This document shows positions 16,750-64,000 of a stretch of 64,000 nucleotides of DNA, one piece after another. The stretch covers positions 1 to 64,000 of IMG/VR virus record IMGVR_UViG_3300044633_000631. One strand, 5' to 3'. The position numbers and the translations under genes are program-made. The DNA comes from a virus. Each line of letters starts with the position of its first letter. Position 1 is the first letter of the stretch. The notes beneath the pieces are model-generated. The model was not told where the DNA came from. It worked only from the letters and a program-made list of their open reading frames with translations, and made no database searches.

Positions 16750-16775
16750 CCTATAGGATATTTGTTTTTAGTATT

Positions 16776-16795
16776 TAGGGTTAATTTAACGGGTT
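16776..16795 (-). promoter_or_regulatory. Putative phage RNAP promoter (copy 1, one mismatch)
   Basis: Plus strand TAGGGTTAATTTAACGGGTT; upstream of scaffold/capsid. Confidence 0.75.
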
Positions 16796-16889
16796 CTATA
16801 ATCCCTTAAGATAATTATCTATTAGTATATTTCTAAGGGATAGATAATAGACTGATTAACTAAAGGGATTAAATAAAGGGGGACCGCTT

Positions 16890-16909
16890 TAGGGTTAATT
16901 TAACGGGGT
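16890..16909 (-). promoter_or_regulatory. Putative phage RNAP promoter (copy 2)
   Basis: Exact TAGGGTTAATTTAACGGGGT, intergenic. Confidence 0.8.
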
Positions 16910-17070: not shown

Positions 17071-20000
17071 TTAGCCTATACCGTAAAATCCCCAATCATC
17101 CTCAAATTTAGTAGGATCAGGAATATCGCTCATTACATCTTTCTTTGTTAAGATGTCTGCTTCTGTTAATGTTTTACCACCGACAACTGATTTACCAGCA
17201 ACTGGAATTAATCCTTTATCAATAGCTTCTTCTAAATATTGATCATATAATTCTTTTGGAAAACCTCTAGCTAACATTTCATCTAAAGTAACCTTGACAG
17301 GGTTCTTATCTAGTACGTTAGCATATAGCTTTCTTATACCCTTCCGGGCCTCCAGCATATCGGCTGCATTGGCGAAAAACGCATCGTGAATGGTGCTTGT
17401 GGCAATCTTATTGTCTCGTCCCCATAAATGGAAATTCTTGACCAACGTAGCATCGTTTGAGTGATTCCCGTTAACGGCATATGCTGTTCGTGCTTTAGTC
17501 GCGTCTGCAATGTCATTTATCTTTCCTTCAGCATTTACTACTTGTTCCCACCAAGTGGCTTCTGTTTTCTGTTGCACTTGAACTAAATTATTAACCCAAT
17601 TACCATCTTTATCTTTATAGACTAATCTTTCTTCAAATGACTGGGTAAAGTTTTGCTCAATAACTTTTCCATCAAAATTAACCCATGGGACATTAGTCCA
17701 AGACTTGGGCAGCTTATTAGCATAAAATATTTCAAAACCTTTAGAGATATTTAATTTTTCTATAGGCTCTACTTTAAATACTTTAAATCCAGTTCTACGA
17801 TCTTTTGGGCCTTTTACACCATAAATAAGATCAGCCAAGGTTCCGTCAGGTTTCCAACCATCAAATCTCTTTAAAAACTTTTCAGACAAAGCTTCTCCAG
17901 GCCTTAATCCTAATATTTCACTAACTCTATCAGGTAATACATAACCCTTTTTACGGGTACCTAATATACTAGTAGCGCCTATAGATTTCCAATCTAATGC
18001 AGCTTGTGAAGGCTTAGCATTAGTTAAATAATCTTCAGCTAGCCTACCAAAGAATTTAGTAAAATCTTTAAGAATAGGAACCTGCTCACCTAAATGTTCA
18101 GACATTAATTTAGCAATAGCTTGGAAGTCTTTTGGAGTGACAACCATATCATATGAACGTGTCATCTTTTCTACTAGGTCTTTAGTAGCTGGATCAAGGA
18201 AGTATAATTGTTCCATTATCTCATCACCAGGGTCTAGTCCTTTATTAAAGATGTCTTTTACATTTTCTCTTAATTGCTTAAGTTCTGCAGTTGTTTCAGG
18301 ATCAAACTTTTCATATCTTGCTGCACGTGCCGATATTTCATTTAATACTTTGTCTCTATCACTAGCTCTAACTACTAATGTAGGTGCAAATGTTTCAGGC
18401 TTTTTAGTTACATTAATCAATTCTTCTTGTAATGCTGAACTAAGATCTGCTATAGTCTTTTCTGTGTTTGCAGTAGCAGGTGTAAATCCTGCATCTTCTA
18501 AAGCCATTTCAGCAGCTTGTTTATTTGTCTTTAAATTATAAACACTCGCTTCATCTTTAATGATAGTGTCTTCACCAAACCTGTTTGACTTTAAAATACG
18601 TTTTTGAGCTTCTAATAATTTAAAGGCTCTTGAATCGGAAGGGACATTTAAAGATTTTAAATGCTCATCTAAAAATTCACCGAGTTCTTCAACAACTTGC
18701 ATAGCAATATATTTCTTAGTATCGCCTTTTGAGCGCTGTTCAAATTTAGCTTTATTTTCAGCTATCTTTTCTTTAGAAAATTTTTCACCAGTCTTATGAT
18801 CAAATGTTTTATATGTAGCACGCTCTTTTCTTTCATCTGTTAATTCAATATCAGAAGTATGTAGCCATTTAAACGTATTTTTTAATTCTGCAGGAGACAA
18901 CTGACCTTTCATAGCCTTTGAAATTAACTCACCTTGCGATTTAATAATCTCATCTACTGTGCCTACATAATTAGGATCTGTTTTATTATCAACACCTAAT
19001 ACTCTTAACAATCCTGCAGAATCTTGACGCTCGGATAATAAACCTTCTGTTACTTTTGTTTCAACAGGTTTTGCAGGTTTCTTTTCCAATACTTTTGCAA
19101 GTTTACCTTCAACATTAAGAATTCCAGTTCTTTCTCCAGCACCATAAAACGTAACCATATTTTGAGCTTTTGCAGCTTTACGTAAATCTTTCTCATTTAA
19201 ACCTAATCTCTCATTTAAAACTTTAAACCGAGGATCATTAAAAGTTGCAGCAGCAATTTCATCATATAGCCTGCGTTTCTGATTTGTAGGTATGACATTA
19301 GATAACGAGGCTAACTGTTTGTTCTTCGTAGTTAACGCAATAATCTGAGCACCTGATGATGAAGCATCTTGTTCTAAAGCTAAAGCTGTTTTGTATGCAT
19401 TCATAGAGCCGCCGGCTTTAAGATGATTATCTATCTTAGCAGCTTCCATAGCAAATCTCATGAACTTACCAAGTTCCTCACCTTCAATTAATTGCACCAT
19501 ATCTGATTCCAGAATGGCACGTAAATCTGCAGGTCTGGCTCTTAGCATTTTATTACCAAGGTCTACCATATCTGGCCACAATTTATCAGCAATCTTTTGG
19601 CGTCCAGTAAATGACAATGAATTATATCTACCTTCAAATACATCATTTAGACCCCCCATAAAGGCACCTATCTGATCTCTGAAGTTTCTATATCCATCTT
19701 CGCCAAGAACCTTTTCTACTTCAGTATTTAAGAAAGGTCTAAATGACTCTCCCGATTGCGGACTAATAAGGCCACGATCATAGATCCTAGCCCGATGATC
19801 GACAAAAGCATGATTACTGAAAGCGTAACCATTATTTCTAAGCCAATCCATAGATTTAAATCGCTCATATGCATCACCACGAGAAGAAATATAATGTTTA
19901 TACTCGTTTAAATCATTATACTTTTTAGCATTACCACGATCATCTTCAAAGTATAGTAATTTCTGAGTAAAGTCGTAAAAGTCATTATCAATTTTATACT

Positions 20001-22398
20001 TGGATTTGGATGCCCAGTTAAGTGCATCTGCCATATTCTTGTCAACAAATTCTACAGGAAAATCTGAAAAACTATTTGTTGATGTAATAGGTATTCTAGT
20101 ATCTTCTAAACCGAGGACACCATTATCAATAAAATACGTTTTATAACCCTCGCGAAATAATAACTTATTCTTATCCGTTGTTACACCGACACGAAGGCCG
20201 ACATCCACTTTCCGTGTGAGCTGTGAGTATTTTTGTACACGCGGATCAGTAACACGTATATTATATGATAAGGTGTCATAATAGGGACCAAATAAAGAAC
20301 CACTAAGTCTACTTTTCATTCTTCTTTTTTGAACACCATATGTTTCAACTTCAAAGAAATTATTAACATTTTTAGCTTCAAGTAGCTTCATACCTGTTTC
20401 ATACCATTTACGTCTAGTGCCGTTCATATTAGCAAGATTATATAAATCTCTTCCTAATGCAATAGCAAACTGGTCTCTATCAGGCATATCTGCCATACTT
20501 AGCCTGTGAGCAAACTTTAGATAAAATTGCTGTAATGCAGATTCAGTTAAACGTTCTTTACCGTTAGGCATTCTTTTTAATACTAAAGGAATTTTGTAAT
20601 CAAATGTATTACGTAACTCTCTAGCTATTTTAGGTGATATAGTGTCTTCCCAGTTATTCTTAGCACGAATATTATCAATGAAATTATCATGTAAGTCTTG
20701 TAATTGAGTTGGACCTAATACTGGATCAATATAATTATCTTGTTTGAGTTTCTTCAATACGTTGATATCACTACGTATCTGAGTTTCAATAGCATCAGAA
20801 ACATTCATTACATCAAATTTAATTTGACCTTGTACTACAGCTTTAAAATTATTCCACTGTTCACCATTATTTCTAAATCTAGTAAATAATATACGCAGGT
20901 TATCTACCACGACTGCCCTTTCATTAGATCCCATTTTCTCACTAAGTAATTCATTAAATTCCTTAATAAATTCCTTATCTTTAGGCTTTAGAACATTACT
21001 TTGTTCTGTCAATCTTAAGTTATTATTTAGTACGGACGGATTGGGTTGGTATAGTCTTGTATCTTCGTATCGACCTGTGACAGGATTAAAAATGAGTTGA
21101 TCTTCTGTTGGAAGACTATTAAGTACTCTTGCCTTGGCAGATTTCTTAGTATGAATAAGACCACCCCTATAATTAGTGAGTGATAATGTACCGTCTAATT
21201 CACCTGATTGCAGTAAATAATAATCTTTAAGTGTTTGTATAAGCTTAGTGTTGCCAATTAAATCATCAGGTGTCATGATTGGAAGTTGCATAGCATCAAG
21301 TTTAGCTTTAGCATTAGCAAACTTTTTTGTATCATTTGGCAGTGTATATGTGGGATCGGTCATCCGTCTTAATTCTTTAATCCCAATAGAATTACCTTCG
21401 GGATTAGTAAACTGATCTAAGGTAAGCTGCCCGCTTTGGAACATACTAACTTTTTTATAATCACCTAAATGCCTTAATTGTACATCTTGTGGCTGACGCT
21501 TTAGCCAATCATTGTATGATTCTCTAAGTGGTGTATTACCGTCATAAAAAGCCTTTTGAGCATCAGTTAAGTTCTCAATATTTCTACGTCTTACTTGTGC
21601 TACGCTTTCTAAATCTGCTATATCGCTCCATGATTTAAATACAGGAACTGTTGTAGATCTACAATGCCAATGTGCTGGTGGGAGATGTGTTGTATCGCTA
21701 ATCGGATAAATTTCACCATCTCTATGGGCACATACTGGGGTTGTTCGTGCGTCAAGGACAGCAACATATTGCCATCCTTGTAACGCTTTTTCATTTGCTT
21801 TATAAATAGCATGATCAGCCTGAGAGGATACAGCTGTAATGGCTGTTATTACCAGACCTTTCGACTGCATGCGAGTTATATTATGTACATTTCCTGCACG
21901 TACTTGTAGAGCTATTTCATCTACGCTTTTTCCGTCAGCTATACCCTTACGTATAACTGCTTCTAATCTAATTTTTTCATTCTTGGCAATACCTGACCAT
22001 CCCTGTTCCATTGTACCATTTTCGCTTAATGGATTTTTAAGTACAATTTCTTCAGAGATTCTATTTTTAGGTCTTTCAGTACGCCATATTTTACCCATTG
22101 CCACTTCAACTTTTTGATAAGCATATGAGAGTTGATCTGAGACAAGTGATGAAAGATCTTTTTGAACAGAATTATTAATTGACTTATAAGTCTTTCTTAA
22201 CTCTTGATCAACTGCTTCTCTGAATCTTTCAAAACCCCTGCCTGATAGTTCAGCATCTTTAATTAATTTATCTAGTCTAACAACATGACCATCAATTACT
22301 AAATCAACTTTACCAGAGACTCTTCTCTCATACAGACGGATCATTGCTGCGCGATCTAGTGTTTTGTCGTATATTTGTGTATTACTATTAATGGTCAT
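17071..22398 (-). CDS. MuF (SPP1 gp7-like) minor head protein fused to a T7-family single-subunit RNA polymerase; putative virion RNAP
   Basis: N-terminal MuF motif WQYVAVLDARTTPVCAHRDG...PPAHWHCRSTTVP (about aa 210-252). C-terminal RNAP motifs DHRARIY...PQ, motif A EQDASSSGAQ (D1011), motif B RKAAKAQNMVTFYG (K1077, Y1085) and NGNHSNDA...IHDAF (D1672). Directly downstream of portal. Confidence 0.9.
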   Translation of the reverse strand: MTINSNTQIYDKTLDRAAMIRLYERRVSGKVDLVIDGHVVRLDKLIKDAELSGRGFERFREAVDQELRKTYKSINNSVQKDLSSLVSDQLSYAYQKVEVAMGKIWRTERPKNRISEEIVLKNPLSENGTMEQGWSGIAKNEKIRLEAVIRKGIADGKSVDEIALQVRAGNVHNITRMQSKGLVITAITAVSSQADHAIYKANEKALQGWQYVAVLDARTTPVCAHRDGEIYPISDTTHLPPAHWHCRSTTVPVFKSWSDIADLESVAQVRRRNIENLTDAQKAFYDGNTPLRESYNDWLKRQPQDVQLRHLGDYKKVSMFQSGQLTLDQFTNPEGNSIGIKELRRMTDPTYTLPNDTKKFANAKAKLDAMQLPIMTPDDLIGNTKLIQTLKDYYLLQSGELDGTLSLTNYRGGLIHTKKSAKARVLNSLPTEDQLIFNPVTGRYEDTRLYQPNPSVLNNNLRLTEQSNVLKPKDKEFIKEFNELLSEKMGSNERAVVVDNLRILFTRFRNNGEQWNNFKAVVQGQIKFDVMNVSDAIETQIRSDINVLKKLKQDNYIDPVLGPTQLQDLHDNFIDNIRAKNNWEDTISPKIARELRNTFDYKIPLVLKRMPNGKERLTESALQQFYLKFAHRLSMADMPDRDQFAIALGRDLYNLANMNGTRRKWYETGMKLLEAKNVNNFFEVETYGVQKRRMKSRLSGSLFGPYYDTLSYNIRVTDPRVQKYSQLTRKVDVGLRVGVTTDKNKLLFREGYKTYFIDNGVLGLEDTRIPITSTNSFSDFPVEFVDKNMADALNWASKSKYKIDNDFYDFTQKLLYFEDDRGNAKKYNDLNEYKHYISSRGDAYERFKSMDWLRNNGYAFSNHAFVDHRARIYDRGLISPQSGESFRPFLNTEVEKVLGEDGYRNFRDQIGAFMGGLNDVFEGRYNSLSFTGRQKIADKLWPDMVDLGNKMLRARPADLRAILESDMVQLIEGEELGKFMRFAMEAAKIDNHLKAGGSMNAYKTALALEQDASSSGAQIIALTTKNKQLASLSNVIPTNQKRRLYDEIAAATFNDPRFKVLNERLGLNEKDLRKAAKAQNMVTFYGAGERTGILNVEGKLAKVLEKKPAKPVETKVTEGLLSERQDSAGLLRVLGVDNKTDPNYVGTVDEIIKSQGELISKAMKGQLSPAELKNTFKWLHTSDIELTDERKERATYKTFDHKTGEKFSKEKIAENKAKFEQRSKGDTKKYIAMQVVEELGEFLDEHLKSLNVPSDSRAFKLLEAQKRILKSNRFGEDTIIKDEASVYNLKTNKQAAEMALEDAGFTPATANTEKTIADLSSALQEELINVTKKPETFAPTLVVRASDRDKVLNEISARAARYEKFDPETTAELKQLRENVKDIFNKGLDPGDEIMEQLYFLDPATKDLVEKMTRSYDMVVTPKDFQAIAKLMSEHLGEQVPILKDFTKFFGRLAEDYLTNAKPSQAALDWKSIGATSILGTRKKGYVLPDRVSEILGLRPGEALSEKFLKRFDGWKPDGTLADLIYGVKGPKDRRTGFKVFKVEPIEKLNISKGFEIFYANKLPKSWTNVPWVNFDGKVIEQNFTQSFEERLVYKDKDGNWVNNLVQVQQKTEATWWEQVVNAEGKINDIADATKARTAYAVNGNHSNDATLVKNFHLWGRDNKIATSTIHDAFFANAADMLEARKGIRKLYANVLDKNPVKVTLDEMLARGFPKELYDQYLEEAIDKGLIPVAGKSVVGGKTLTEADILTKKDVMSDIPDPTKFEDDWGFYGIG

Positions 22399-38023: not shown

Positions 38024-38110
38024 AGTTTACTCACATTTCAGTTTGCATTCAATGAGTTACGTCTCCGTAGCCCTCTATTTTAAAAATTAACAATTATTTA
38101 TTATTAATCT

Positions 38111-38130
38111 TAGGGTTAATTTAACGGGGT
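38111..38130 (-). promoter_or_regulatory. Putative phage RNAP promoter (copy 3)
   Basis: Exact TAGGGTTAATTTAACGGGGT. Confidence 0.8.
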
Positions 38131-38265
38131 TTTCTATATGTCTCAGCGCTTTGCCCTTTAGGAAAAAGCCAGGGATCCCCTAAGGGATATATTTATTAGA
38201 TTAATTATTATTGATTAATAACTAAGGATTAACAACTAATGGATTATAATTCAGGGGAGCGGCTT

Positions 38266-38285
38266 TAGGGTTAATTTAACGGGGT
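38266..38285 (-). promoter_or_regulatory. Putative phage RNAP promoter (copy 4)
   Basis: Exact TAGGGTTAATTTAACGGGGT. Confidence 0.8.
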
Positions 38286-38495: not shown

Positions 38496-38547
38496 AGAAA
38501 AAAAAAAATAAGGGGCCCTCCTACCACCCCGAAGGGCAGTAGGAGGG
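38496..38547 (-). terminator. Rho-independent terminator
   Basis: Minus strand CCCTCCTACTGCCC-TTCG-GGGTGGTAGGAGGG: a 14-bp stem with two G-U pairs and a cUUCGg loop, then a T11 tract. Confidence 0.85.
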
Positions 38548-38553
38548 AAAAGG

Positions 38554-38739
38554 TTAATCACGCAAGTGTAAAATTTTTACTAGAAATGAAACTGGAAATG
38601 CTAAAATTTGCCAAATTACTTTACCTATAAATCGACATAAAACTGTAAGATCATCAGGCGCATGTAAATGACAAGGCTCAATTGTTTTATTAATCATGAT
38701 TTCCCCGCATTTGCCACATGAATAATATGAATCATCCAT
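38554..38739 (-). CDS. Hypothetical protein
   Basis: 61 aa, CxxC, hydrophobic C-terminus, coupled to the upstream gene. Confidence 0.55.
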   Translation of the reverse strand: MDDSYYSCGKCGEIMINKTIEPCHLHAPDDLTVLCRFIGKVIWQILAFPVSFLVKILHLRD

Positions 38740-41077: not shown

Positions 41078-41265
41078 TGGAATCTTAATGCACGAGCTAT
41101 TTCATGCCAAGTTTCATATGTGACAGTGTGGCATTTATTGTGAGTAGGATATGAAACGCCTACATAGTACTTCTTATCATCTGAATAAAGCGCTACACTC
41201 TCTGTTGCATTAAAGTTGATTGTAATTAACTCATCTTCTGTACTCTTAATTACTATAATATTCAT
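41059..41265 (-). CDS. Hypothetical protein
   Basis: Short ORF with an ATGA overlap. Confidence 0.55.
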   Translation of the reverse strand: MNIIVIKSTEDELITINFNATESVALYSDDKKYYVGVSYPTHNKCHTVTYETWHEIARALRFQWSKLC

Positions 41266-41723: not shown

Positions 41724-42057
41724 TTGAAATACCTCTTAGTAGTATTGAAAATTTGCCCAAGATTGGTAATGGGCTGTTTAAAGTATACATGTTAGCGATT
41801 CTGATGTTAAATGAGTCTTTGTCTTTAAACGCTATAGGCTCATTAGGCCATTCCCCGTAATACAATCTCCACGCAAGACGTGCTGCAGATGTTTGTTTTT
41901 TCGCAGAACCTGGTACACGAACTACACAGCGCACACCTCTACTTTTACCAACGCTTTGTGTAAGACATGCATTAGCGCCATTATGCCTTGTAATTGTGCC
42001 ATTAATAGCATTATAAATAAAATACCTTTCTTTAATCAAAACTTCAAACTCTTTCAT
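41704..42057 (-). CDS. HNH endonuclease-like protein (degenerate)
   Basis: FIYNAINGTI...SAARLAWRLYYGEWP...IAFKDKDSFNIRIANM. Confidence 0.7.
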   Translation of the reverse strand: MKEFEVLIKERYFIYNAINGTITRHNGANACLTQSVGKSRGVRCVVRVPGSAKKQTSAARLAWRLYYGEWPNEPIAFKDKDSFNIRIANMYTLNSPLPILGKFSILLRGISNESKRS

Positions 42058-42059
42058 AA

Positions 42060-42737
42060 TTAACCTCGATTAATAAAGTCCAACACATCGCGTCCTAATG
42101 CAATTAAATCATTTTCAGAGATGTTATCAGCTAGAATCAATATAGACCCCTCTTTAATCTCTAATAAGAATTCATAATCATTTCTTCTAAACTTAGCAAT
42201 CCTACCTTCTGAACTTATAATACTAAATGTACCAGATGTAGGATCAGTGTTAAGTTTAATACCTGGTTGAGTAGAGATAATCTCTTTTAAACGCAAGAAT
42301 GCTTGATCACTACCAATAGAAACTTTAACTTCCATCCCATCGACTTTACAATTAGGGTATAAAAGCTTTAGCAGGTCTATGTGAGAGTCAAGAGAACATT
42401 TTAAAGTTTTATATTCAAGATCTACAATAGCATTTCTAGGGCGTGCTTTTAAAGCTTTTTCTATTGCCAAGCCAAGATACTCGTTGCATTTTCCTTTTTG
42501 TTTATAAGAAACAAAAGGTATTTTATCAACTAATTCAATGTAAGTTTTTAATGGCATTTGGCCACGTACTGTTGCTTCGCGAGATGTTACCATAAGGTCT
42601 TGAATAGTGACTAGTTCAATGCCCTGGATTATTAATTCATTCGCTACTTGTACCAATGTTTTAAATTCCTTACGAGCAATATCTTCAACTTGAAGACGCA
42701 CGCTATTGTTTGTATATGCTGTTAAATATCTCATCAT
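42060..42737 (-). CDS. Hypothetical protein
   Basis: 225-aa ORF with a GGAG RBS. Confidence 0.7.
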   Translation of the reverse strand: MMRYLTAYTNNSVRLQVEDIARKEFKTLVQVANELIIQGIELVTIQDLMVTSREATVRGQMPLKTYIELVDKIPFVSYKQKGKCNEYLGLAIEKALKARPRNAIVDLEYKTLKCSLDSHIDLLKLLYPNCKVDGMEVKVSIGSDQAFLRLKEIISTQPGIKLNTDPTSGTFSIISSEGRIAKFRRNDYEFLLEIKEGSILILADNISENDLIALGRDVLDFINRG

Positions 42738-42760
42738 TTCTTTATCTCCAGTTTTTGATT

Positions 42761-42794
42761 AAAAACCCCTCAACCATTAAGGTCAAGGGGTGTT
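42761..42794 (-). terminator. Terminator-like hairpin
   Basis: Minus strand CCCCTTGACC-TTAAT-GGTTGAGGGG followed by T5. Confidence 0.75.
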
Positions 42795-42803
42795 TGTTAA
42801 AAA

Positions 42804-43418
42804 TTACTTACCAGCTTTTGCTTCACGTTTTAAACGATTAGCTTCACGTTTTGCAGCCAATTCAGCTACAGCTTCTGGGCCTTTAGACTCAGCTTCTGCA
42901 TCTTCTTCAGCACGTTTCTTAGCTTGGTATTCTGCTAAACCAGCAGCAGCTTTGGGTGACACTTCGCGTTTTTCAACGCCAGCGCTATAAGCTTCCAAGA
43001 TAGCAGCAGAGTTACTAACAACATAATCAGCAAGTTCAGGATTACCTGATGCTTGTAAGATTTCTGTTTTAGCGGCTTCTACTTTTTCTTCAGCAGTTAA
43101 ACGTTTTACAGCAGGCCATCTGAACGAATCTAAAACAGCTTTTGCATTGTCAAATAAGAAACCTGAAGTGATTTCCGCAAGTGCTTTTTCCAATTTGTTA
43201 TAATCAGATTTAGTCACACGACGAATAGTACCACTTTCGAAAGCAGATTCAACTGTGTCTTGGTTATCAACTAACCATTCTGCAACGTCTGTTTGATTGC
43301 TTACAGCTGTTAACATAGCTGCTAAAATCAATGGACGTCTAACAAAGTTTAATGCTTCTGCTTTAGTTGCAAATGTTTGACCGTTTACTACGAATGCTTG
43401 TTGGATTTGGACTGACAT
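42804..43418 (-). CDS. Hypothetical protein, probably highly expressed
   Basis: Has its own promoter motif, an AAGGA RBS and a terminator; Ala/Glu/Lys-rich tail. Confidence 0.8.
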   Translation of the reverse strand: MSVQIQQAFVVNGQTFATKAEALNFVRRPLILAAMLTAVSNQTDVAEWLVDNQDTVESAFESGTIRRVTKSDYNKLEKALAEITSGFLFDNAKAVLDSFRWPAVKRLTAEEKVEAAKTEILQASGNPELADYVVSNSAAILEAYSAGVEKREVSPKAAAGLAEYQAKKRAEEDAEAESKGPEAVAELAAKREANRLKREAKAGK

Positions 43419-43540
43419 GATGAATTCCTTAAGATAAATTATTAATTAATATTTATCTGTGCGGTCCCACTTAGTGCGCTTTTGCCCAATGCTCTTACAG
43501 TTCTTAATACGAGATGAGAATCTAACTTCTTATTTGAAAT

Positions 43541-43560
43541 TAGGGTTAATTTAACGGGGT
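43541..43560 (-). promoter_or_regulatory. Putative phage RNAP promoter (copy 5)
   Basis: Exact TAGGGTTAATTTAACGGGGT. Confidence 0.8.
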
Positions 43561-43606
43561 TGGCACACTCGCATTACAACCCGAACCCGTTAAGGTACTG
43601 CTTTTG

Positions 43607-43942
43607 CTACGCGTTGGCCACAGACGGCACGAGGAACCTGTCCCATGCCTGCAGGGATGCCTCAGACGCGGTTGCCAGCTCTGCCCCCGTTTCTGGCCCA
43701 AATTTGGGCACCCTGATGCCAGCGGGTAGCACGGGCTGTGAGTCACCAACTTCCACAAGATTGAGGTCATTGTACGGATCATTCTTATTAACTAATCCCT
43801 CCATAGTCCATGAAGTATGTTCCCAATCACCGTCATCTAAATACAACCCAAGTACAGGATAGCCATAGCGCTCCTCAATAATACCCAAAAGCACAACTTC
43901 CCGGCCATCTTGTGTCTCATATGCTTTATCTAAATCAATCAT
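43607..43942 (-). CDS. Hypothetical protein, repeated small domain with a GC-rich 3' extension
   Basis: MIDLDKAYETQDGREV...YPVLG...WTMEG...DLNLVE; tandem paralogue of 43939-44196. Confidence 0.65.
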   Translation of the reverse strand: MIDLDKAYETQDGREVVLLGIIEERYGYPVLGLYLDDGDWEHTSWTMEGLVNKNDPYNDLNLVEVGDSQPVLPAGIRVPKFGPETGAELATASEASLQAWDRFLVPSVANA

Positions 43943-44196
43943 TTGTATACTCCACTTAGTTTAATACCTTCAGGCAATACAGGCAGTTCATCACTAAACT
44001 CTTTTAAATCACGACCCATCGGTTCTTCATCATCGTAAACATATCCTTCGATAGTCCATGTTTCTCCTGTCCATTCGCTATAATTGTCTAAATACGCACC
44101 CACTACACTATATGGGTTTTCTTCAGACGATAAGATTGCAAATAGCACTACTGGACGTTCATTGCGGGTTACATATGTTTTATTTAAATCAATCAT
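43939..44196 (-). CDS. Hypothetical protein, repeated small domain
   Basis: MIDLNKTYVTRNERPV...YSVVG...WTIEG...DLKE. Confidence 0.7.
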   Translation of the reverse strand: MIDLNKTYVTRNERPVVLFAILSSEENPYSVVGAYLDNYSEWTGETWTIEGYVYDDEEPMGRDLKEFSDELPVLPEGIKLSGVYK

Positions 44197-44438
44197 TTTC
44201 TTACTACCCCTTGGCTTGGATCACTTAATTCAACAAGCTCATAAATGTGCTTGCCTTCGATTACAACACCACCAATGTTTGTTTGGTGGACTTGACGATA
44301 GTCTTCGTACTTCATATTAACTACAACTACCGATACCGCTATTGCTATCATCATTCCGATAATAGCAGATATTAAATCAAATTTGTGTAACATGTTCTTA
44401 ACCTCTTGGTTTATTAACTCTTTCATATTATTGCGCAA
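44193..44438 (-). CDS. Hypothetical membrane protein
   Basis: One TM segment, LISAIIGMMIAIAVSVVVV. Confidence 0.6.
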   Translation of the reverse strand: MRNNMKELINQEVKNMLHKFDLISAIIGMMIAIAVSVVVVNMKYEDYRQVHQTNIGGVVIEGKHIYELVELSDPSQGVVRK

Positions 44439-44637
44439 CTAAATCTAAATCATTATCTACAATACTTTCATCGCATCGCCCGTCTATCATCCAACGCTCA
44501 TCAATCCATTCCTGATAGTCAGTATCATAATAACGCCCTAACACTGGATAATCAGTTTTAACTGATGTGATAATTTGGTGTACTTCCGCTTTGAAGCCAC
44601 ACTGTGTGCGATACTTCTTTTGAATTTCGATTTTCAT
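44428..44637 (-). CDS. Hypothetical protein, repeated small domain
   Basis: KKYRTQCGFKAEV...YPVLG...WMIDG...DLDLV. Confidence 0.7.
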   Translation of the reverse strand: MKIEIQKKYRTQCGFKAEVHQIITSVKTDYPVLGRYYDTDYQEWIDERWMIDGRCDESIVDNDLDLVAQ

Positions 44638-44640
44638 AAC

Positions 44641-44796
44641 CTACCCCGGTGGATTGCATGAGTAGCACATGCAGTTTCTGTGATAGCCGTGTGGGCCAAG
44701 AATTCTGTCACCATCTTCTTCCCAGTTTTCTTCTTGAGGTTCTGGATCATAATCCCACTCTTGATCATCACTTAATTGACCTCTATAAAATGTCAT
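44641..44796 (-). CDS. Small acidic protein with a His/Cys-rich tail (51 aa; not in ORF track)
   Basis: MTFYRGQLSDDQEWDYDPEPQEENWEEDGDRILGPHGYHRNCMCYSCNPPG. Confidence 0.55.
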   Translation of the reverse strand: MTFYRGQLSDDQEWDYDPEPQEENWEEDGDRILGPHGYHRNCMCYSCNPPG

Positions 44797-44819
44797 ATCT
44801 TATCTCTCAGTAAATGCCG

Positions 44820-45098
44820 CTAATTAAGAAGATTTGTTAACTGATCACTTTCTACGCAACCGTGCAGGGTGCCATAAGATGGAAAGTAGCCTGTCAGGCT
44901 ACAAGTCCCTCCATCTTCAAAGTAGATGCTTTCATTAGAGAAATTGAAGCCAATTATCGTCTTCGGCCCTCTTCTCGCGGTTCCCCATGTCTGGCCTATT
45001 GCGAATTCAGTCCCGTTTACACGAATGCGTTTCTTTGACTTATGAATCTCCAATTCACCACCAAAGCGATGGTAAGGTTGCCACTCTTGATCACTCAT
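44820..45098 (-). CDS. Hypothetical protein
   Basis: 92-aa ORF with a GGAG RBS. Confidence 0.6.
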   Translation of the reverse strand: MSDQEWQPYHRFGGELEIHKSKKRIRVNGTEFAIGQTWGTARRGPKTIIGFNFSNESIYFEDGGTCSLTGYFPSYGTLHGCVESDQLTNLLN

Positions 45099-45243
45099 GT
45101 CTCATCTCTCCGCTCTGGTTCATTCAACTTAGTTTCAGCCGCATGTTCTAATTGTTTAATGTACACGTACACATCGTACGGTACTTTGAAATGCGCAAGT
45201 TTACGCGTTTTTAAATCGGGGATTGCTACAAAGTATGAACCTG

Positions 45244-45348
45244 TCACGTATCCTCCTCCTCGTCATCCCATTCCCATTCATCATCAAGTTCTTCTTCATC
45301 ATCGTCGATCCAAGTCTCGTCCTCGCCATGATTTTCATATATAGCCAT
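45244..45348 (-). CDS. Hyperacidic peptide (34 aa; not in ORF track)
   Basis: MAIYENHGEDETWIDDDEEELDDEWEWDDEEEDT. GAGG RBS; starts 2 nt after the upstream stop. Confidence 0.55.
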   Translation of the reverse strand: MAIYENHGEDETWIDDDEEELDDEWEWDDEEEDT

Positions 45349-45350
45349 TG

Positions 45351-46223
45351 TTAAACCTCTTTAATTAAGTCTTCATCACTGTAAGCGCCACAGTCATAAT
45401 AATAACCTTTGCGTGTATATATACGTAAGGAATCATCACTCGCGCCCATTGCAACAACATGTTCATCATCTCTAATGTGTATTATCTCATACTTTTCACC
45501 ACGTTCGTTAACATACATACTACCAACTTCTAAACAGAGTCCATTGAATTCCCCCACAAGACTTGTTTCTGCGATAGGAAATTGCTGTCCCTTGAGCAAT
45601 CCTGTTAATTTAGTTGCAAGTCCTGATTCAACTCTATAAACATGACCTTTGGCACCAATATAAAGCTTTTTATCATCTGGAGGAAAGACATCAACTATAT
45701 CATAATCAGACTGTTCATTTTCAAATATTTCACCATATTTACTTACACCAAACTTGCAACCATTAGTTGTACTATATTCATATCTATAGAACCCTACGTC
45801 ACTGGTTGTTTTTGTTATACTAGCCATTTGACCGCTACGTGTTACATAAATACCGCCTACTTTTACTTTAGGAGGTCTCAGCAAATCGCACTCAGACTTT
45901 GTATCAATATACATCTTACCATCTATTGTGTAGTCATAGCCATTATCACCACTAAATACATATCTACCATAATGCTCTATATCTGTTAATGTTACAGGGT
46001 TTCCCTCTCGTGTAAAATACTGACGACCCGCTTTAAACTTAAAATTACGTACACGTTCTACTAAATCCCAATCTGATTCGTCATAATCAAATCTTTTACC
46101 ATCCTTCGTTACTGTATAATCAGCATTTGTACCAAACGGATACACAGGACTCTCTGTCGTCTCAATAATTCTGACAACTTTACCGTGACGTGTTCTATAC
46201 TTCTTGTTCAGTTTTATTTTCAT
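45351..46223 (-). CDS. Hypothetical protein with about 4-5 tandem copies of the repeated small domain
   Basis: KKYRTRHGKVV, RQYFTREGNPV, GIYVTRSGQMA, SMYVNERGEKY; each unit ends ..DG/KG......DL/DI. Confidence 0.75.
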   Translation of the reverse strand: MKIKLNKKYRTRHGKVVRIIETTESPVYPFGTNADYTVTKDGKRFDYDESDWDLVERVRNFKFKAGRQYFTREGNPVTLTDIEHYGRYVFSGDNGYDYTIDGKMYIDTKSECDLLRPPKVKVGGIYVTRSGQMASITKTTSDVGFYRYEYSTTNGCKFGVSKYGEIFENEQSDYDIVDVFPPDDKKLYIGAKGHVYRVESGLATKLTGLLKGQQFPIAETSLVGEFNGLCLEVGSMYVNERGEKYEIIHIRDDEHVVAMGASDDSLRIYTRKGYYYDCGAYSDEDLIKEV

Positions 46224-56473: not shown

Positions 56474-56965
56474 TTAGAATACGTCATCGTCAGTTTCATT
56501 ACTGCTGAATTCACGTTCATATTCTGTCTCACCGAAATCATCTTCGCTGATACGTGGAGTATATACTATATGCTTTGTTAATTGTACTGTCATAAGGGTA
56601 AAGCCTTTCTTTGTAACCCCCATTGGATCTTTATATTCGTATTCAAATACACGAATATTACCGATGGATCCATTTCCAATCGTGTTGGGATCAATAGGTC
56701 TTAATTTACCATCAATCAATTTCACAGGTTCATTTGGTGTACCGTCTGATTTAATAGACTTCTTTTTCAGATTAGCTCTGAAATATGTATCACCATCATC
56801 TGGAACGATAGCCTTGACAGTCAATCCAATAGCTTCCCATTCTTTCTTTTTCTCTTTGTCGGTAGTCCGAATTTGGAGTTCCCATGTAGGATTTTCTTTA
56901 TTAAACTTGCCGTTTGGTTTACCAAGTTTAGCGAAATAAATTTCTACGTCATATAACTTTGCCAT
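56474..56965 (-). CDS. ssb: Single-stranded DNA-binding protein (T7 gp2.5-like)
   Basis: Probable start MAKLYDV. IGNGSIGNI motif and an acidic tail ending in Phe (NETDDDVF); heads the replication block. Confidence 0.8.
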   Translation of the reverse strand: MAKLYDVEIYFAKLGKPNGKFNKENPTWELQIRTTDKEKKKEWEAIGLTVKAIVPDDGDTYFRANLKKKSIKSDGTPNEPVKLIDGKLRPIDPNTIGNGSIGNIRVFEYEYKDPMGVTKKGFTLMTVQLTKHIVYTPRISEDDFGETEYEREFSSNETDDDVF

Positions 56966-56992
56966 TGCTGTTCTCTCTTTTGATTTCTGAAT

Positions 56993-57012
56993 TAGGGTTA
57001 ATTTAACGGGGT
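56993..57012 (-). promoter_or_regulatory. Putative phage RNAP promoter (copy 6)
   Basis: Exact TAGGGTTAATTTAACGGGGT, 27 nt upstream of the SSB start. Confidence 0.8.
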
Positions 57013-57041
57013 CTCTAAGCATTTATAGAGACCCACATTTA

Positions 57042-59610: not shown

Positions 59611-59814
59611 TTAACCCCATTTTTGTAAGATAAAAATTGTGTAAGATCCGTGGTAACCTTCTGTACCACCTGTTGTAATTACATCTGTTAATTCATATTC
59701 AGATTCCATTAATGCTTGTAGTTCAGAGTAGTCAGCTTTATGGCCAACAGCAATGTTTAGTATCTTTACTTCGTGTTTCTTCTTTGGTTGTGTTAAACCT
59801 ATTACATTGCTCAT
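59611..59814 (-). CDS. Hypothetical protein
   Basis: Probable start MSNVIG, with an ATGA overlap. Confidence 0.55.
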   Translation of the reverse strand: MSNVIGLTQPKKKHEVKILNIAVGHKADYSELQALMESEYELTDVITTGGTEGYHGSYTIFILQKWG

Positions 59815-60095
59815 ACCGCAAATCCATACCATTTGCCAACAGGCATTATCGGGTTAGCAAGAAACTTGCACATCGGATTTGTGATCTCAATGGCTTCTCT
59901 CTCTTTCTTTCTTAAGTTATGCATACATGCTTTTAAATCAACACCACTATAAACATAAGTTATGCTACCGTTTTTATTACGTATAGAATCTACTGGATCT
60001 GCTTGACTTTTTACGATACGTGTACGAACAGTATTAGGTGTTGTTCCAGTCAATTCTGCGTATTCATGTATTGTAAATCTTTGTGGCTGTGTCAT
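59811..60095 (-). CDS. Putative HTH DNA-binding protein
   Basis: FTIHEYAELTGTTPNTVRTRI; AGGAG RBS; directly after the RNAP gene. Confidence 0.6.
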   Translation of the reverse strand: MTQPQRFTIHEYAELTGTTPNTVRTRIVKSQADPVDSIRNKNGSITYVYSGVDLKACMHNLRKKEREAIEITNPMCKFLANPIMPVGKWYGFAV

Positions 60096-60103: not shown

Positions 60104-62323
60104 CTATGCGAAAGCGTATTCGCTTTCTAGAATTAAATTAATATCAAGATCACCCATCTCAAGATAAGTAAGATCTCCGTCAATATCATCCATTATTGGA
60201 AACAATGGATTATCTTTATAAAGTTCTACAAATGTCTCGCGAACTATTCTAAAGAGATTTGGCATGTCAGCAAATAAACAACCATAGCTGTCATGAATTG
60301 TTGTAATTGTAAAATCACAACGGTGTGTAGTAAGTGCTAAGTGTGCTGCATCTAAACTATGAATAACGTTAGGTGCTGCTCCTTGAGACTGCTTACCTTT
60401 ACTAGGAACCACATCTTCAATAAAACATATTGCTAATTGAAAAGTGTTTTCATAATAACCTGTAGATTTACGTGACCCAACTGGTGGCCCATACTGTACA
60501 TAAATCTTTTTAACTTTACCTTCTGTATAATTTTGTACCACAGGAAAGTTTACTATTGGAACATTCCATGATAAAAATTCTTCAATTTTCTCACAGTTTC
60601 TTCCGGCATTCTCAAATATATTTAACAGCCTCATTGGCTTCTCTAATGAAGCTTTACAATCTTCAAATACTAATCTGCCCAGCCAAGCTCCCCATTTATG
60701 CTCCATATGAAGTAGCAAGTCTATTCCATGCTTTTTTGCATCAAGGATTTGTTGCTCTCCCAATCCATAGCTGCTACCTCCATAAGGAAGAGTCATAGTG
60801 TTTCTTTTAACTATCTTCCTTCTTTGTTTCAAATCCTTTATACGATTCCAAAATACAGGTGCTGCAACAGAGCCAATATCAGCCCATTGTTGTTTATAGG
60901 CTTTAATTTGAGCTACTAGTTGATTCCTAATTTCAGACTTAGGTTCGGATGCAGTAATCTTTTTCTTTAATTTAATTAAGCCATCTATAAAATCTTCACA
61001 TTGAAAGATTAAATCCGCTGGCATTCTTGCTATGTCATTAGATATTTTATTCCATACATGTTCGGCAACATATGCATATAAATCACCTGGAAGTTCTAAT
61101 GGAATTAAATTAACATATGGAGCTGTTATTTCATCTCTTGTTAATGCAGATAAATGTTGTGAGCCGTTCGTTGATCCGTCAATAAAACATTCAACATGTG
61201 ACTCATACTCTAAATATCTTGGTCCCAATTTTAAAGCATTTCTTAATTCAATACATGCACTTAAGAATTGCCATGGCTTATCTCCTGACATCCATCCTTG
61301 ATTTACTTTTGGACTTTCTGCATATGATAATAAAATCTCTTGATTGTCTAATACCCACTGATATCGGTCTTTGAGATTGATCTTATCCGTCTTTGCACCA
61401 TCTTCACGTCCTGATGAACCTGCCCAGTTACTGGCGATAGATACACATAGCCAAAAGAAACCCTCTTCACCAATTACTTTCTTATCTTGACGCATTAAAA
61501 GACCTTTAGCAATATCACTAGATTGTTCATGGAGATATGCCGTTGTTGGATATTTCCTTCCACGGAAATCAAGGTAATACATATGGTAAAATACAGTATC
61601 CATGAACTTATCTGCTATAGATAGAATAGCTTTTGTTTCCCTTAATTTAGTAGTCTTAGCTTGAGGATTTTGCTGCTCCCATATATCACTAAATGCATCA
61701 GTATGGTTATTCAATGCCCATTTAGAAACATTATAAACTTCTTTGTTTATTTGCCAACCCGTATTTAAGCTCTTATTTACTGAATCAAATACTATAGGAT
61801 GTGTTGCAGGTGTTAATTTTGTTGGAACATCTTTATTACCCGTCTTGACTAATACTTGTCCAGTAGGGTGTTTGAATTCTGTATAAGATTCATATGGTGT
61901 TACTGAAGGTAATTTACCCTTGGCACCTTCTCTGCTTACACTTTCCCATAGTAATTGTATTGTCGCATCATCTAAGACTTCTACAATATATGTTGCATGA
62001 CCATTACCAGCAGAACCTAGTACTGCTCTAAGCATTCCAAGCTCTTCAAATGAGTATAGTATGAATGCACCAGTCTTAGCCGCAACAGATGAATCTTTCT
62101 TTAAACCTCGTCTTACTGAATGCCCAATAATGCTAATGACTTCTACCATTAATATTTGTTTGTTTACAGCACCTCTCTTTGGACGAGTGTATAAGTATAC
62201 GTTAGATATTATTACATCTAATACGCTTTCTAAGTCAATTTCTTTTAGAAATTTTAGCGGACTTTGAGGAGCTATTTCTAATTGCATCCTTCTTTTTAAT
62301 GACTTCAATAGTTGTATTCTCAT
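60104..62323 (-). CDS. T7-family single-subunit DNA-directed RNA polymerase (stand-alone, 739 aa)
   Basis: DFRGRKYP, KPWQFL, motif A IDGSTNGSQH, motif B RKIVKRNTMTLPYG, APNVIHSLDAAHL, motif C IHDSY. Confidence 0.97.
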   Translation of the reverse strand: MRIQLLKSLKRRMQLEIAPQSPLKFLKEIDLESVLDVIISNVYLYTRPKRGAVNKQILMVEVISIIGHSVRRGLKKDSSVAAKTGAFILYSFEELGMLRAVLGSAGNGHATYIVEVLDDATIQLLWESVSREGAKGKLPSVTPYESYTEFKHPTGQVLVKTGNKDVPTKLTPATHPIVFDSVNKSLNTGWQINKEVYNVSKWALNNHTDAFSDIWEQQNPQAKTTKLRETKAILSIADKFMDTVFYHMYYLDFRGRKYPTTAYLHEQSSDIAKGLLMRQDKKVIGEEGFFWLCVSIASNWAGSSGREDGAKTDKINLKDRYQWVLDNQEILLSYAESPKVNQGWMSGDKPWQFLSACIELRNALKLGPRYLEYESHVECFIDGSTNGSQHLSALTRDEITAPYVNLIPLELPGDLYAYVAEHVWNKISNDIARMPADLIFQCEDFIDGLIKLKKKITASEPKSEIRNQLVAQIKAYKQQWADIGSVAAPVFWNRIKDLKQRRKIVKRNTMTLPYGGSSYGLGEQQILDAKKHGIDLLLHMEHKWGAWLGRLVFEDCKASLEKPMRLLNIFENAGRNCEKIEEFLSWNVPIVNFPVVQNYTEGKVKKIYVQYGPPVGSRKSTGYYENTFQLAICFIEDVVPSKGKQSQGAAPNVIHSLDAAHLALTTHRCDFTITTIHDSYGCLFADMPNLFRIVRETFVELYKDNPLFPIMDDIDGDLTYLEMGDLDINLILESEYAFA

Positions 62324-62502
62324 CTGATCCTTTGCTGTTTAAAATACTGGAGAACGCACATAGTAGTAATAAATTAAATATCGGCATTGTCACCACTATT
62401 TACTAAATGTACTACTGTTGCCATAATTACTACAGGTGTAGTCAATCCGAATAATACGGAAGCTAACCATACTGTTGCCGCATAATTTAATGTATTAGTC
62501 AT

Positions 62503-62583
62503 AGAAAGAAAAAAATAAGGGTTAACCCTCCCACATCCCTAATACACCCCCAATTAAGGGAATGTATTAGGGATGTGGGAGGG
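62503..62583 (-). terminator. Long perfect inverted repeat with a T tract, upstream of the RNAP gene
   Basis: 21-bp perfect arms at 62526-62546 and 62563-62583, then TTATTTTTTTCTTT on the minus strand. Confidence 0.7.
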
Positions 62584-62620
62584 GATATTCTTACTTACAG
62601 AGTCAACAGACTCTGACTTT

Positions 62621-63013
62621 CTATGGCAGTGTTCGAAGCTCTTTAAGTAGTTCGTAATCCTTTTTGCCTATATAGATCGGGTTGAGGGACCCTTTTAAAT
62701 TTACAACTGGATAAACACTTATTCCATCTTTTACAAATTCCTTTAAAAGATAGATATCTTCAACATCTAACTTTTTAGCACTGAAAGTATATTCCGGTGG
62801 TTTATCTTTTTTGTCCACTGGATAGTGACCTTCTAGAACAATATAACCATTCCACTTAGCCTCCTTTGCTAAACGTCTTAATTCACGTTTAGCTTTTATA
62901 GCTTCAAGTTTTTTCTTCTTCTTAAAATCCTCATCAGCTTCTTTTATGAAGTCTTGACAGTCTTTAGTAAAGAAGATCCCAACTGCAATTGCCACAATCC
63001 AAAGAGGGTTCAT
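62621..63013 (-). CDS. Hypothetical protein with an N-terminal hydrophobic segment
   Basis: MNPLWIVAIAVGIFF; AGGAGG RBS. Confidence 0.65.
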   Translation of the reverse strand: MNPLWIVAIAVGIFFTKDCQDFIKEADEDFKKKKKLEAIKAKRELRRLAKEAKWNGYIVLEGHYPVDKKDKPPEYTFSAKKLDVEDIYLLKEFVKDGISVYPVVNLKGSLNPIYIGKKDYELLKELRTLP

Positions 63014-63285
63014 AGTAACAACCCTCCTAAAAGGAATGGTACAATGAGTATAATGTCAAACACTAGCCTCCCGATATTAAGCAAATAGTGATACATATAC
63101 CAGCTGTTGATTCCAACTGGCATTGTTACAACTGCAACAGCTCCAATTACAACTGCTGTAGCAGCTATAGTTGATGTTACAATTTCCACTTGAGCCTCAA
63201 TAGCGGTCTCAGCAGGTGTTCTTGAGTCTTCTAGTTTGTTTAAAACTAAGGCACCCAAACCAACAAGTAATACTAATGGTATCAT
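63010..63285 (-). CDS. Hypothetical membrane protein
   Basis: Three hydrophobic segments; GGAG RBS. Confidence 0.65.
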   Translation of the reverse strand: MIPLVLLVGLGALVLNKLEDSRTPAETAIEAQVEIVTSTIAATAVVIGAVAVVTMPVGINSWYMYHYLLNIGRLVFDIILIVPFLLGGLLL

Positions 63286-63563
63286 TTCTTTTCTCCAAAT
63301 AATGCATCAAATAAAGTGTATACAGCAAAGCCAACAACTACCCCTGCTACAATAGGGTTTAATACAACAGCTGTTCCTGTTGCAGCAGCTGTCGCAAACG
63401 GTGTAACAATCGTTTGTGCACCTACTTGTAAGGCTGTTCGTGTAACAACTACAGAAGCTACTTCTGCAATTATTATTGGCGCTTGCGCAGCTACGTAAGA
63501 GCCTGCGAGATATCCAGCTGATACTGGGGCCACTACATCTAAAACTTTGCTTAGTTCGCTCAT
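63282..63563 (-). CDS. Hypothetical Ala/Val-rich membrane protein
   Basis: GAGG RBS; hydrophobic composition. Confidence 0.65.
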   Translation of the reverse strand: MSELSKVLDVVAPVSAGYLAGSYVAAQAPIIIAEVASVVVTRTALQVGAQTIVTPFATAAATGTAVVLNPIVAGVVVGFAVYTLFDALFGEKK

Positions 63564-63592
63564 TGTAAGCTTCCTCTTGGAATGTGAAGTTA

Positions 63593-63844
63593 TTAAAGAT
63601 TAATTTTGAATGAATAAATGCCTTTTTCAGATATACGTAGGTCTGAGCCTTCATGCATCCAAATAAGATAGCCAGCTTCTCCTACGTCGAGTGTGCTAAC
63701 AATAGCCCAGGGATTTCCATCAGGCGGATATATTGCTGTTACTTCAGAGTTATTTCTTTTTCCTTCATAAACTTGACCTGTTAATTCAGAGTCATTAAGA
63801 AGATTTAATTCTACTATTACACATGCAATTTTAATTAATTTCAT
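63593..63844 (-). CDS. Hypothetical protein
   Basis: 83-aa ORF with an AAGG RBS. Confidence 0.6.
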   Translation of the reverse strand: MKLIKIACVIVELNLLNDSELTGQVYEGKRNNSEVTAIYPPDGNPWAIVSTLDVGEAGYLIWMHEGSDLRISEKGIYSFKINL

Positions 63845-64000
63845 TTTGATTTACCTTTTAGTTAGATTGCATTGCTGCGATTGTAGCCATGATTGCGGCC
63901 ATTTGATCTTCTACATTGTTGTCTAGAGCTTTGATACTTTCATCATGAGCAATTTTCATTGCTTCTAATTCAGAATAGACTGCTGCTTTTGCTTGTTGAA

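Follow-up and report, generated by a model that had tools for sequence, protein, structure and literature searches.

The stretch of DNA analysed here, called the window below, comprises bases 1-64000 of the 78,740-bp IMG/VR record IMGVR_UViG_3300044633_000631 (G000) and encodes two RNA polymerases (RNAPs). The first is a free T7-type single-subunit RNAP of 739 aa, encoded by an open reading frame (ORF) at 60104..62323 on the minus strand and recognised by its Pfam and PHROG matches, its motifs and its structural model. The second lies at 17071..22398, also on the minus strand, where a MuF (SPP1 gp7) minor head protein of 1775 aa carries a divergent, complete RNAP module at about residues 630-1775. 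Because the ends of the record repeat over 58 bp, the assembly is taken to be circular; the source is a complete 78.7-kb lake-water long-tailed phage (siphovirus), DNA matching it is found in many lake-water metagenomes, and all its real genes are on the minus strand. These two enzymes, the three classes of conserved signals placed around their genes and the transcription relay that they may form together are the subject of this report.

The free RNA polymerase gene and its surroundings

The first-pass annotation had described the 739-aa protein as a polymerase with canonical motifs, and this holds in full: the ORF is open and all catalytic motifs are intact. The protein matches the Pfam family RNA_pol (PF00940) with 220.9 bits (cut-off 22; E 3.7e-65) over residues 282-711 and the PHROG family phrog_414, “RNA polymerase”, with an E-value of 3.1e-112. 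Along the chain one encounters DFRGR at 252, motif A (DGSTNGSQH) at 382, motif B (RRKIVKRNTMTLPYGG) at about 501-516, H655, motif C (HDSYG) at 677 and a C-terminal YAFA. In a phmmer search against solved structures, residues 157-201 align with residues 295-339 of T7 RNAP and residues 224-739 with T7 392-883; the corresponding pairs (free enzyme/T7) are DFRGR/DWRGR, D382/D537, H655/H784, H677-D678/H811-D812 and YAFA/FAFA, with R502/R627, K506/K631, Y514/Y639 and G515/G640 in motif B. Residues D382, R502, K506, Y514, H655, H677 and D678 are invariant across 48 diverse homologues, down to 24% identity.

The AlphaFold2 model of the free enzyme, computed from a 48-homologue alignment, has a pLDDT of 93.5 and a pTM of 0.89. 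Its top global match in Foldseek is the T7 RNAP-promoter complex 1cez (TM 0.75, E 6.6e-30), the elongation complexes reaching a TM of only 0.58-0.63. Superposition with VIA-align places model residues 1-739 on T7 77-883 of 1cez (Z 36.7, rmsd 3.1 Å, 661 aligned residues) and model residues 135-739 on T7 266-883 of the elongation-state entries. In the clade with a shared class-1 motif (see below), the specificity-loop region at 581-640 is conserved at 0.71-0.77 as against a protein mean of 0.62 (121 relatives). In the phylogenetic tree, the free RNAP belongs to a well-supported clade of compact enzymes that is separate from the clades of DSS3_VP1 (a cultured roseophage), of the Pelagibacter phage Kolga and of T7/Xp10. 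Taken alone, the free RNAP is an ordinary member of a large clade of compact T7-type polymerases.

The enzyme is shorter than T7 RNAP by 144 aa, close to the 140 aa or so estimated earlier, and both phmmer and the structural alignment place the whole shortfall within the N-terminal domain, as had been surmised. The missing residues correspond to T7 1-76 and to some 55 residues inside T7 77-266, a range spanned by model residues 1-135; the full-length N-terminal domain (T7 1-325) is absent, the model beginning at T7 residue 77. By position, the loss of about 55 residues probably falls near subdomain H, a place at which the model shows only a loop (46-58) of low confidence. The aligned ranges further place, in the model, a β-hairpin (98-116) where T7 RNAP has its intercalating hairpin (~229-246), a long β-hairpin (600-640) at the site of the T7 specificity loop and a loop (17-23) at the position of the AT-rich loop, without the arginines of the latter. 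Compact polymerases of this size are known from Xp10 (746 aa), Kolga (762 aa) and DSS3_VP1 (732 aa), and a search of representative sequences returned many relatives of 700-760 aa aligning from their first residues; the N-terminal truncation is common to a large clade.

It had also been suggested that so short an N-terminal domain may need a cofactor, such as the product of the neighbouring gene, a putative 94-aa helix-turn-helix (HTH) protein encoded at 59811..60095 (-). On this account, which would modify rather than replace the interpretation given below, the polymerase could neither find nor open promoters alone, in the manner of N4 RNAPII with gp2 or of the mitochondrial RNAP with TFB2M. 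The RNAP stop and the start of the HTH gene are 8 nt apart, and the HTH gene follows the RNAP gene in the nearest of the related genomes, G001, G002 and G004 and, weakly, G006; factor-dependent mitochondrial RNAPs, moreover, fit the model about as well as T7 RNAP does (Z 36-40). Against it, no HTH homologue was detected next to the RNAP gene in G003, G005 or DSS3_VP1, and the HTH protein is represented by 3 database protein clusters compared with at least 440 for the RNAP. N4 RNAPII, a minimal and cofactor-dependent enzyme, aligns to residues 286-739 of the free RNAP only (Z 19.9, with a Z of ~22 for the N4 mini-vRNAP), while the model of the free RNAP appears to retain the promoter-binding core, with a hairpin at the intercalating-hairpin position and a specificity loop. 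The sole family match of the HTH protein is a sub-threshold one to Sigma70_r4_2, and the predicted RNAP-HTH complex (alignments A1 and A3) scores 0.02 against a mark of 0.32, which weighs neither way. The model offers no structural reason to expect a cofactor, and we regard dependence on the HTH protein as very improbable.

In several relatives, the free RNAP gene carries inserts of 747-790 bp, located at L039:1908-2693 (G005), L041:17255-18044 (G006), L031:12154-12907 (G002) and L032:18735-19481 (G003); G000 is without one. The insert breaks the gene exactly at DFRGR (G005 and G006) or at the YG of motif B (G002, G003 and G004), and each encodes an HNH (in some cases HNH-AP2) homing endonuclease. 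An intein was considered, as suggested by a 994-aa open frame in G003, and was rejected because the endonucleases sit in another frame; the inserts are more likely mobile introns.

Read in gene-strand order (all on the minus strand), the genome begins with the tail genes, which end at 64975. Then come a GC-rich, non-coding island of 285 bp (record 64690-64975; L005:2690-2975), with 60-66% GC in a genome of 36% GC, and small ORFs of unassigned function before the free RNAP gene (62323-60104), the 94-aa HTH-like ORF and further small ORFs. Small variable ORFs thus surround the free RNAP gene, with the tail genes on one side and, on the other, a T7-like replication module composed of nucleotide kinase, DNA polymerase, exonuclease, primase-helicase, ribonucleotide reductase and ligase. 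Terminase, fibres and portal come after this module, followed by the MuF-RNAP, the scaffold and the major capsid protein. The last ORF, giant and tape-measure-like, spans the ends of the record: it has 3868 aa within the window (2-11605) and an apparent continuation at record 78707-74199, a frame of 1502 aa across the circular junction, so that the whole would measure about 5300 aa.

The GC-rich island, which separates the tail genes from the early region, abounds in GGGCAG-like repeats, and relatives have a stretch of 54-59% GC at its position; it may serve as a packaging site or contain the ends of the genome. As a structured RNA it was rejected, its folding being no better than that of shuffled sequence (z -0.47), with no RNA-structure signal; an Rfam search of the window and the rest of the record returned nothing at the gathering thresholds. 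Similar sequence at both contig ends of G002 was considered as a guide to the physical genome ends and set aside: the two ends are just 78-86% identical, which looks like mixed strains, and physical ends are not inferable from them.

A second polymerase carried by a MuF head protein

In the 1775-aa protein, Phage_Mu_F covers residues 146-250 and is accompanied by matches to RNA_pol and phrog_414; the gene occupies the portal-MuF-scaffold-capsid slot. The RNAP module displays the strings DHRARIY, DASSSGAQI, RKAAKAQNMVTFYGAG, NGNHSND and TIHDAFF, with D1011, K1077, Y1085-G1086, H1646 and D1672 as catalytic equivalents, and these key residues are invariant in 20 homologues, that of DSS3_VP1 included. 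The strings by which the first-pass annotation had set the two enzymes apart are all present, DGSTNGSQH at 382 and APNVIHSLD at 650 in the free RNAP, DASSSGAQI at 1011 and AVNGNHSND at 1641 in the fused one. Its claim of two separate and clearly divergent polymerases is likewise borne out, as catalytic residues are kept in both while a pairwise phmmer comparison of the two gives no match. Only at the level of profiles are they aligned, free residues 48-700 with fused residues ~633-1700 (98.8% probability, E 7e-17, 17% identity, 621 columns). Because this alignment spans residues 48-700 of the free enzyme, the fused module can be recognised as a complete, deeply diverged RNAP that includes the N-terminal domain.

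A profile of the fused family finds T7 RNAP with an E-value of 8.7e-4 and N4 RNAPII weakly (E 0.16), N4 vRNAP not being listed among its matches. The model of the module, which is of low to moderate confidence (pLDDT 63.5), gives Z scores of 24-25 with mitochondrial and T7 RNAPs and 17.5 with the N4 mini-vRNAP. A phylogeny of both polymerases had been proposed as a check; it places the free enzyme in a well-supported clade, as described above, and is unreliable for the fused module, whose join with N4 vRNAP is flagged as a meeting of long branches and is not relied on here. In G000, the MuF-RNAP also contains an insert of ~235 aa after motif B (~1107-1340), modelled with very low confidence and absent from most of the ~1540-aa relatives.

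The two polymerases occur together. PF00940 is found twice, in the free gene and in a giant ORF, in five of the five related records that were searched, including that of DSS3_VP1. The fused module is matched by 380 database proteins, and nearly all of the 120 listed among these carry PF04233 together with PF00940; the homologues are typically ~1540 aa long and are named just “SPP1 gp7 family head morphogenesis protein”, and many are on contigs equal in length to contigs that bear the free RNAP. Kolga has a related free RNAP and a plain MuF protein of 633 aa. The nearest MuF-RNAP among deposited phages, at 57.7% identity, is that of EBPR siphovirus 1 (JF412302.1, 25723-31141), where the HNH endonuclease gene gp48 splits it between gp47 and gp49 and the annotation names just a head protein.

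MuF fusions are regarded as capsid-delivered effectors (PMC5512222). In the full-text literature searched, outside which most subscription journals fall, neither a MuF-RNAP fusion nor a siphovirus with two T7-type RNAPs is described; the paper on the Naomiviridae mentions no RNA polymerase and contains no virion proteomics, and a later paper on dU-DNA enzymes mentions no RNA polymerase either.

Three classes of conserved signals

The first class of signal (class-1) is the 20-nt motif CCCCGTTAAATTAACCCTAA on the gene strand, or TTAGGGTTAATTTAACGGGG on the plus strand, which is matched six times in the window at three mismatches or fewer where 0.00 matches are expected; every copy lies between genes and points in their direction. 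One copy (56992..57011) heads the replication module, from a 163-aa protein through the nucleotide kinase and the DNA polymerase onward, and another (43540..43559) is intergenic, ahead of a 204-aa gene. A tandem pair (38265..38284 and 38110..38129) precedes the terminase/late operon and a second pair (16889..16908 and, with one mismatch, 16775..16794) precedes the scaffold and major capsid genes, all on the minus strand. The six promoter-like motifs had been reported to lie downstream of the free RNAP gene without exception. The six are real and are at lower coordinates than that gene, but a variant copy, ACCCGTTGAATTAACCCTTC (record 64680-64699; four mismatches, with the exact core AATTAACCC), and a half copy with its core at record 64657-64665 stand upstream, beyond the window's end. 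This pair opens the early region and is conserved in relatives; it could represent positive feedback by the free enzyme, or related specificities of both enzymes.

Class-1 copies are kept at matching places in six relatives with RNAPs 63-98% identical to that of G000. DSS3_VP1 has a motif of its own, ATAGGGTGCGTTAAAGAGGGGG, with seven exact copies of an 11-14-nt core and at least 12 gene-strand copies at three mismatches or fewer; none falls in 29399-45929, the stretch with the small ORFs and the RNAP gene, and the copy at 46554 precedes the homologue of the gene behind the G000 copy at 56992. Positions -17 to -8 of the annotated T3 promoters read exactly as the class-1 core AATTAACCCT; because the spacing to any start site must differ, this is a hint of T7-type recognition and not of homology.

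The gene behind the copy at 56992 (window 56474-57022) has its listed ATG at 57022, overlapping the class-1 motif; the likely true start is an ATG at about 56965, preceded by a short leader and a purine-rich ribosome-binding site. Its 163-aa product has no PHROG match, and its DSS3_VP1 homologue comes directly after the promoter motif of that phage.

Contigs from three lake metatranscriptome runs (two studies) and from one DNA run were compared over 48001-67900; the RNA contigs are assembled ones from a related strain and show neither true 5' ends nor expression levels. The depth of the DNA run is flat, 33-54 (about 37). In the RNA libraries, the two bins just downstream of the 56992 motif have depths of 171-221 (39 and 21 in the second study) and the next bin upstream 9-14 (0 in the second study), and the second study has one contig whose end lies 8 nt below the motif. 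Parts of the RNAP gene have RNA contig cover at a depth of 6-25; the RNA contigs leave 62609-63936 without cover, a region whose early ORFs vary between strains, and nothing is concluded from it. The data give a weak hint that the 56992 motif marks a transcript start.

We consider it very likely that the free RNAP is an active polymerase and that class-1 is the motif it reads. The assignment could also be reversed, the MuF-RNAP reading class-1 together with its variant while the free RNAP reads the class-2 motif or the hairpin element described below; the variant copies do occupy the leading position in the early region of all relatives, and a newly made fused enzyme could act late, before it is packaged. 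However, it is the free enzyme that is closer to T7 RNAP and is conserved in its specificity-loop region, and class-1 has the length and layout of a T7-type promoter and shares 10 nt with that of T3. A 739-aa enzyme serving just two or three promoters upstream of its own gene would also make little sense, and we hold the reversed assignment to be improbable.

The second class of signal (class-2), GCGGAAAnAnnGGTATCTTATATGA, heads the early region in two copies at record 64611 and 64073. At these two sites, and exactly twice, one finds GGTATCTTATATGA, each time 37-50 nt before an early ORF; one copy comes directly after a cUUCGg hairpin with a T-run. Six genomes yield 16 distinct copies, two or three in each, with the consensus tGCGGaAAaa..GGTATCTTATATGAagtaCaAtaa, invariant over 14 nt and placed only at the head of the early region, save for one extra copy in some relatives. 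In DSS3_VP1, three copies of GGCATCTATAATGA (10/14 identical) occur: two follow the terminator of the tape-measure gene immediately, at the start of the small-ORF region, and the third is at 67792. No class-2 motif was found in Kolga or Xp10, both of which are without a fused RNAP. Kolga does have repeated AT-rich 10-mers, but these are dispersed within genes, on either strand, and do not resemble promoters. Distinct early and later motif classes, both conserved in relatives, are present, as they would be in a relay of the N4 type.

The class-2 motif is where the main competing explanation has to be weighed. Following the logic of T7 and Xp10, the host RNAP would read the class-2 sites as unusual sigma-70-type promoters and the free RNAP would take over at class-1, leaving the MuF-RNAP with another job, such as pulling in the genome, priming replication or adding to late transcription. 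The RNAP genes of T7 and T3 are read from Escherichia coli promoters, Kolga and Xp10 have free RNAPs of the same size class without a fused one, and the class-2-like motif of DSS3_VP1 contains TATAAT. In the G000 lineage, by contrast, the motif CTTATATGA makes a poor -10 box with no -35 box at the right spacing, and its 14 positions, “spacer” included, are invariant in the 16 copies, beyond what a sigma-70 promoter needs. The early region shows no enrichment of sigma-70-like sites (25 against an expected 33.9), none of these sites marks the class-2 positions, and the motif is partly conserved between a marine Ruegeria phage and lake phages. Early transcription by the host polymerase is, in our judgement, unlikely without being far-fetched.

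The third signal is a hairpin element. At 62509..62584 (-), ~185 nt upstream of the RNAP ATG, a perfect hairpin with a stem of 21 bp is followed by a 10-nt spacer, TTAACCCTTA, and a run of seven T residues. Strong hairpins of differing sequence, often with a cUUCGg loop, are likewise followed by CCCTTATTTTTTT 30-250 nt before the RNAP gene in G001, G002, G003, G005, G006 and DSS3_VP1. A pattern scan found two hairpin sites in G000, G001, G002 and DSS3_VP1, of which the second immediately precedes the late operon with its class-1 pair; in G000, this second hairpin (38500..38560, minus strand) has a cUUCGg loop followed by CCCTTATTTTTTTT and lies just upstream of the pair. A possible hydrophobic ORF of 42 aa (62374..62502, minus strand) lies between the hairpin element and the RNAP gene and was detected elsewhere only in G003.

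The element is not a textbook intrinsic terminator, because the T-run of the RNAP copy is 6-19 nt from the stem. Its best reading is that of a terminator or attenuator, probably gating read-through at two temporal boundaries; the alternative reading is a hairpin-type promoter. Neither reading has the free RNAP gene transcribed as a plain continuation of the preceding ORFs.

A candidate relay and its counterparts in known phages

The cascade of two polymerases proposed by the first-pass annotation stands as regards its parts, namely two divergent RNAPs, their co-occurrence in all five records and a motif heading the later operons; the packaging and ejection of the MuF-RNAP, and the pairing of each polymerase with its signal, are what we infer. 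In the relay that we favour, the MuF-RNAP, made late, would dock at the portal via its MuF domain and be ejected with the DNA. It would be the first to read, transcribing the early region, which is headed by the two class-2 motifs and includes the free RNAP gene, and read-through into that gene would be gated by the hairpin and CCCTTATTTTTTT just upstream of it. The free RNAP, as the “non-virion” enzyme, would be active, self-sufficient and promoter-specific; it would then read class-1 (CCCCGTTAAATTAACCCTAA), starting at or just after the terminal TAA, and so drive the replication, packaging and capsid operons. The same relay in DSS3_VP1 would have its early starts at GGCATCTATAATGA and its later starts at ATAGGGTGCGTTAAAG.

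Several points weigh against this relay. The Naomiviridae paper has no virion proteomics that could bear on packaging and ejection, and the RNA evidence consists of assembled contigs from a related strain. The variant and half class-1 copies head the early region, so that the promoter classes are not cleanly separated in space. A hairpin with a T-run stands between the early ORFs and the RNAP gene and, since no class-1 or class-2 motif comes after it, simple co-transcription of the RNAP gene with these ORFs is not assured. The DSS3_VP1 version of class-2 holds a perfect TATAAT, as the -10 box of a host sigma-70 promoter would, and the related free RNAP of Kolga, in a phage with a plain MuF, indicates that this enzyme family can work without a fused partner. 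With these points counted, the full relay, in which the MuF-RNAP is packaged, ejected, reads the early region and hands over to the free enzyme, seems to us the somewhat likelier account. A wider claim can be put forward only tentatively: the whole lineage, from the lake phages to the dU-DNA Naomiviridae, might run a programme of three signals without the host RNAP, made up of the MuF-RNAP with class-2, the hairpin gate before both the RNAP gene and the late operon, and the free RNAP with class-1.

If the relay is real, its fused enzyme would be the first virion polymerase of the T7 family beyond the N4 group, as well as the first carried by a MuF head protein; MuF fusions could then deliver a full transcription enzyme, and there would be a second model for the exit of a large polymerase from the capsid via a long tail. 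The design is widespread, being found in hundreds of protein clusters and on contigs of 60-97 kb, and its cultured members, DSS3_VP1 and DSS3_PM1 on Ruegeria pomeroyi, make these proposals testable at the bench. It is also a possible source of compact, orthogonal polymerase-promoter pairs.

In comparison with T7 and T3, the free RNAP shares the fold (1cez), the catalytic motifs, the C-terminal xAFA and, judged by position, a specificity-loop hairpin, and promoter-like motifs of ~20 nt head the operons, with a core (AATTAACCCT) that equals T3 -17 to -8. It differs in being 144 aa shorter, with 26-29% identity and a well-supported clade separate from that of T7/Xp10, and in residing in a 78.7-kb long-tailed phage where there is no sign of host promoters driving its gene. 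Like the present phage, the siphovirus Xp10 has an equally compact T7-type RNAP (746 aa) and a T7-like replication module; unlike it, Xp10 has no second polymerase fused to a head protein and neither motif class, and its RNAP groups with that of T7. Xp10 relies partly on the host RNAP.

The relay of N4 runs from the virion RNAP gp50 to RNAPII (gp15/gp16) with gp2 and then to the host RNAP. The likeness is one of outline: a packaged polymerase of the T7 superfamily, the packaging being presumed here, serves early genes that encode a second polymerase of the same superfamily. The carrier is a MuF head protein in a siphovirus, whereas that of N4 is a 3500-aa podovirus ejection protein, and the fused module, as modelled, appears nearer to T7 and mitochondrial RNAPs than to the N4 mini-vRNAP (Z 24-25 versus 17.5). 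The second enzyme here is a single 739-aa chain with a promoter-binding domain and that of N4 a minimal heterodimer; the late operons here carry a phage motif, while those of N4 depend on the host RNAP.

The nearest published analogue in logic is the Thermus phage P23-45, a siphovirus in which a structural protein carries an RNAP and this virion RNAP, fused to the tape measure protein, transcribes the gene of a free non-virion RNAP (PMC10770324). Both of its RNAPs are two-barrel enzymes with no relation to the T7 family, and the tape measure protein takes the carrier role that MuF has here. DSS3_VP1, which like DSS3_PM1 is one of the Naomiviridae, shares both polymerases with G000 (35% and 31% identity), together with its own multi-copy motif, a class-2-like motif, a hairpin element and the same layout; its fused gene is annotated only as “head morphogenesis”, and the papers on this phage make no mention of an RNAP. 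In Kolga, the free RNAP is related and the MuF protein is not fused to a polymerase. Relays between virion and non-virion RNAPs are known from N4, from the phiKZ/AR9 jumbo phages, from crAss-like phages and from P23-45, each with its own set of components. The present relay would be assembled from two enzymes of the T7 family, one of which would travel on the MuF minor head protein of a siphovirus of ordinary appearance, and this system of two polymerases and three signals is apparently an undescribed variant of such relays.

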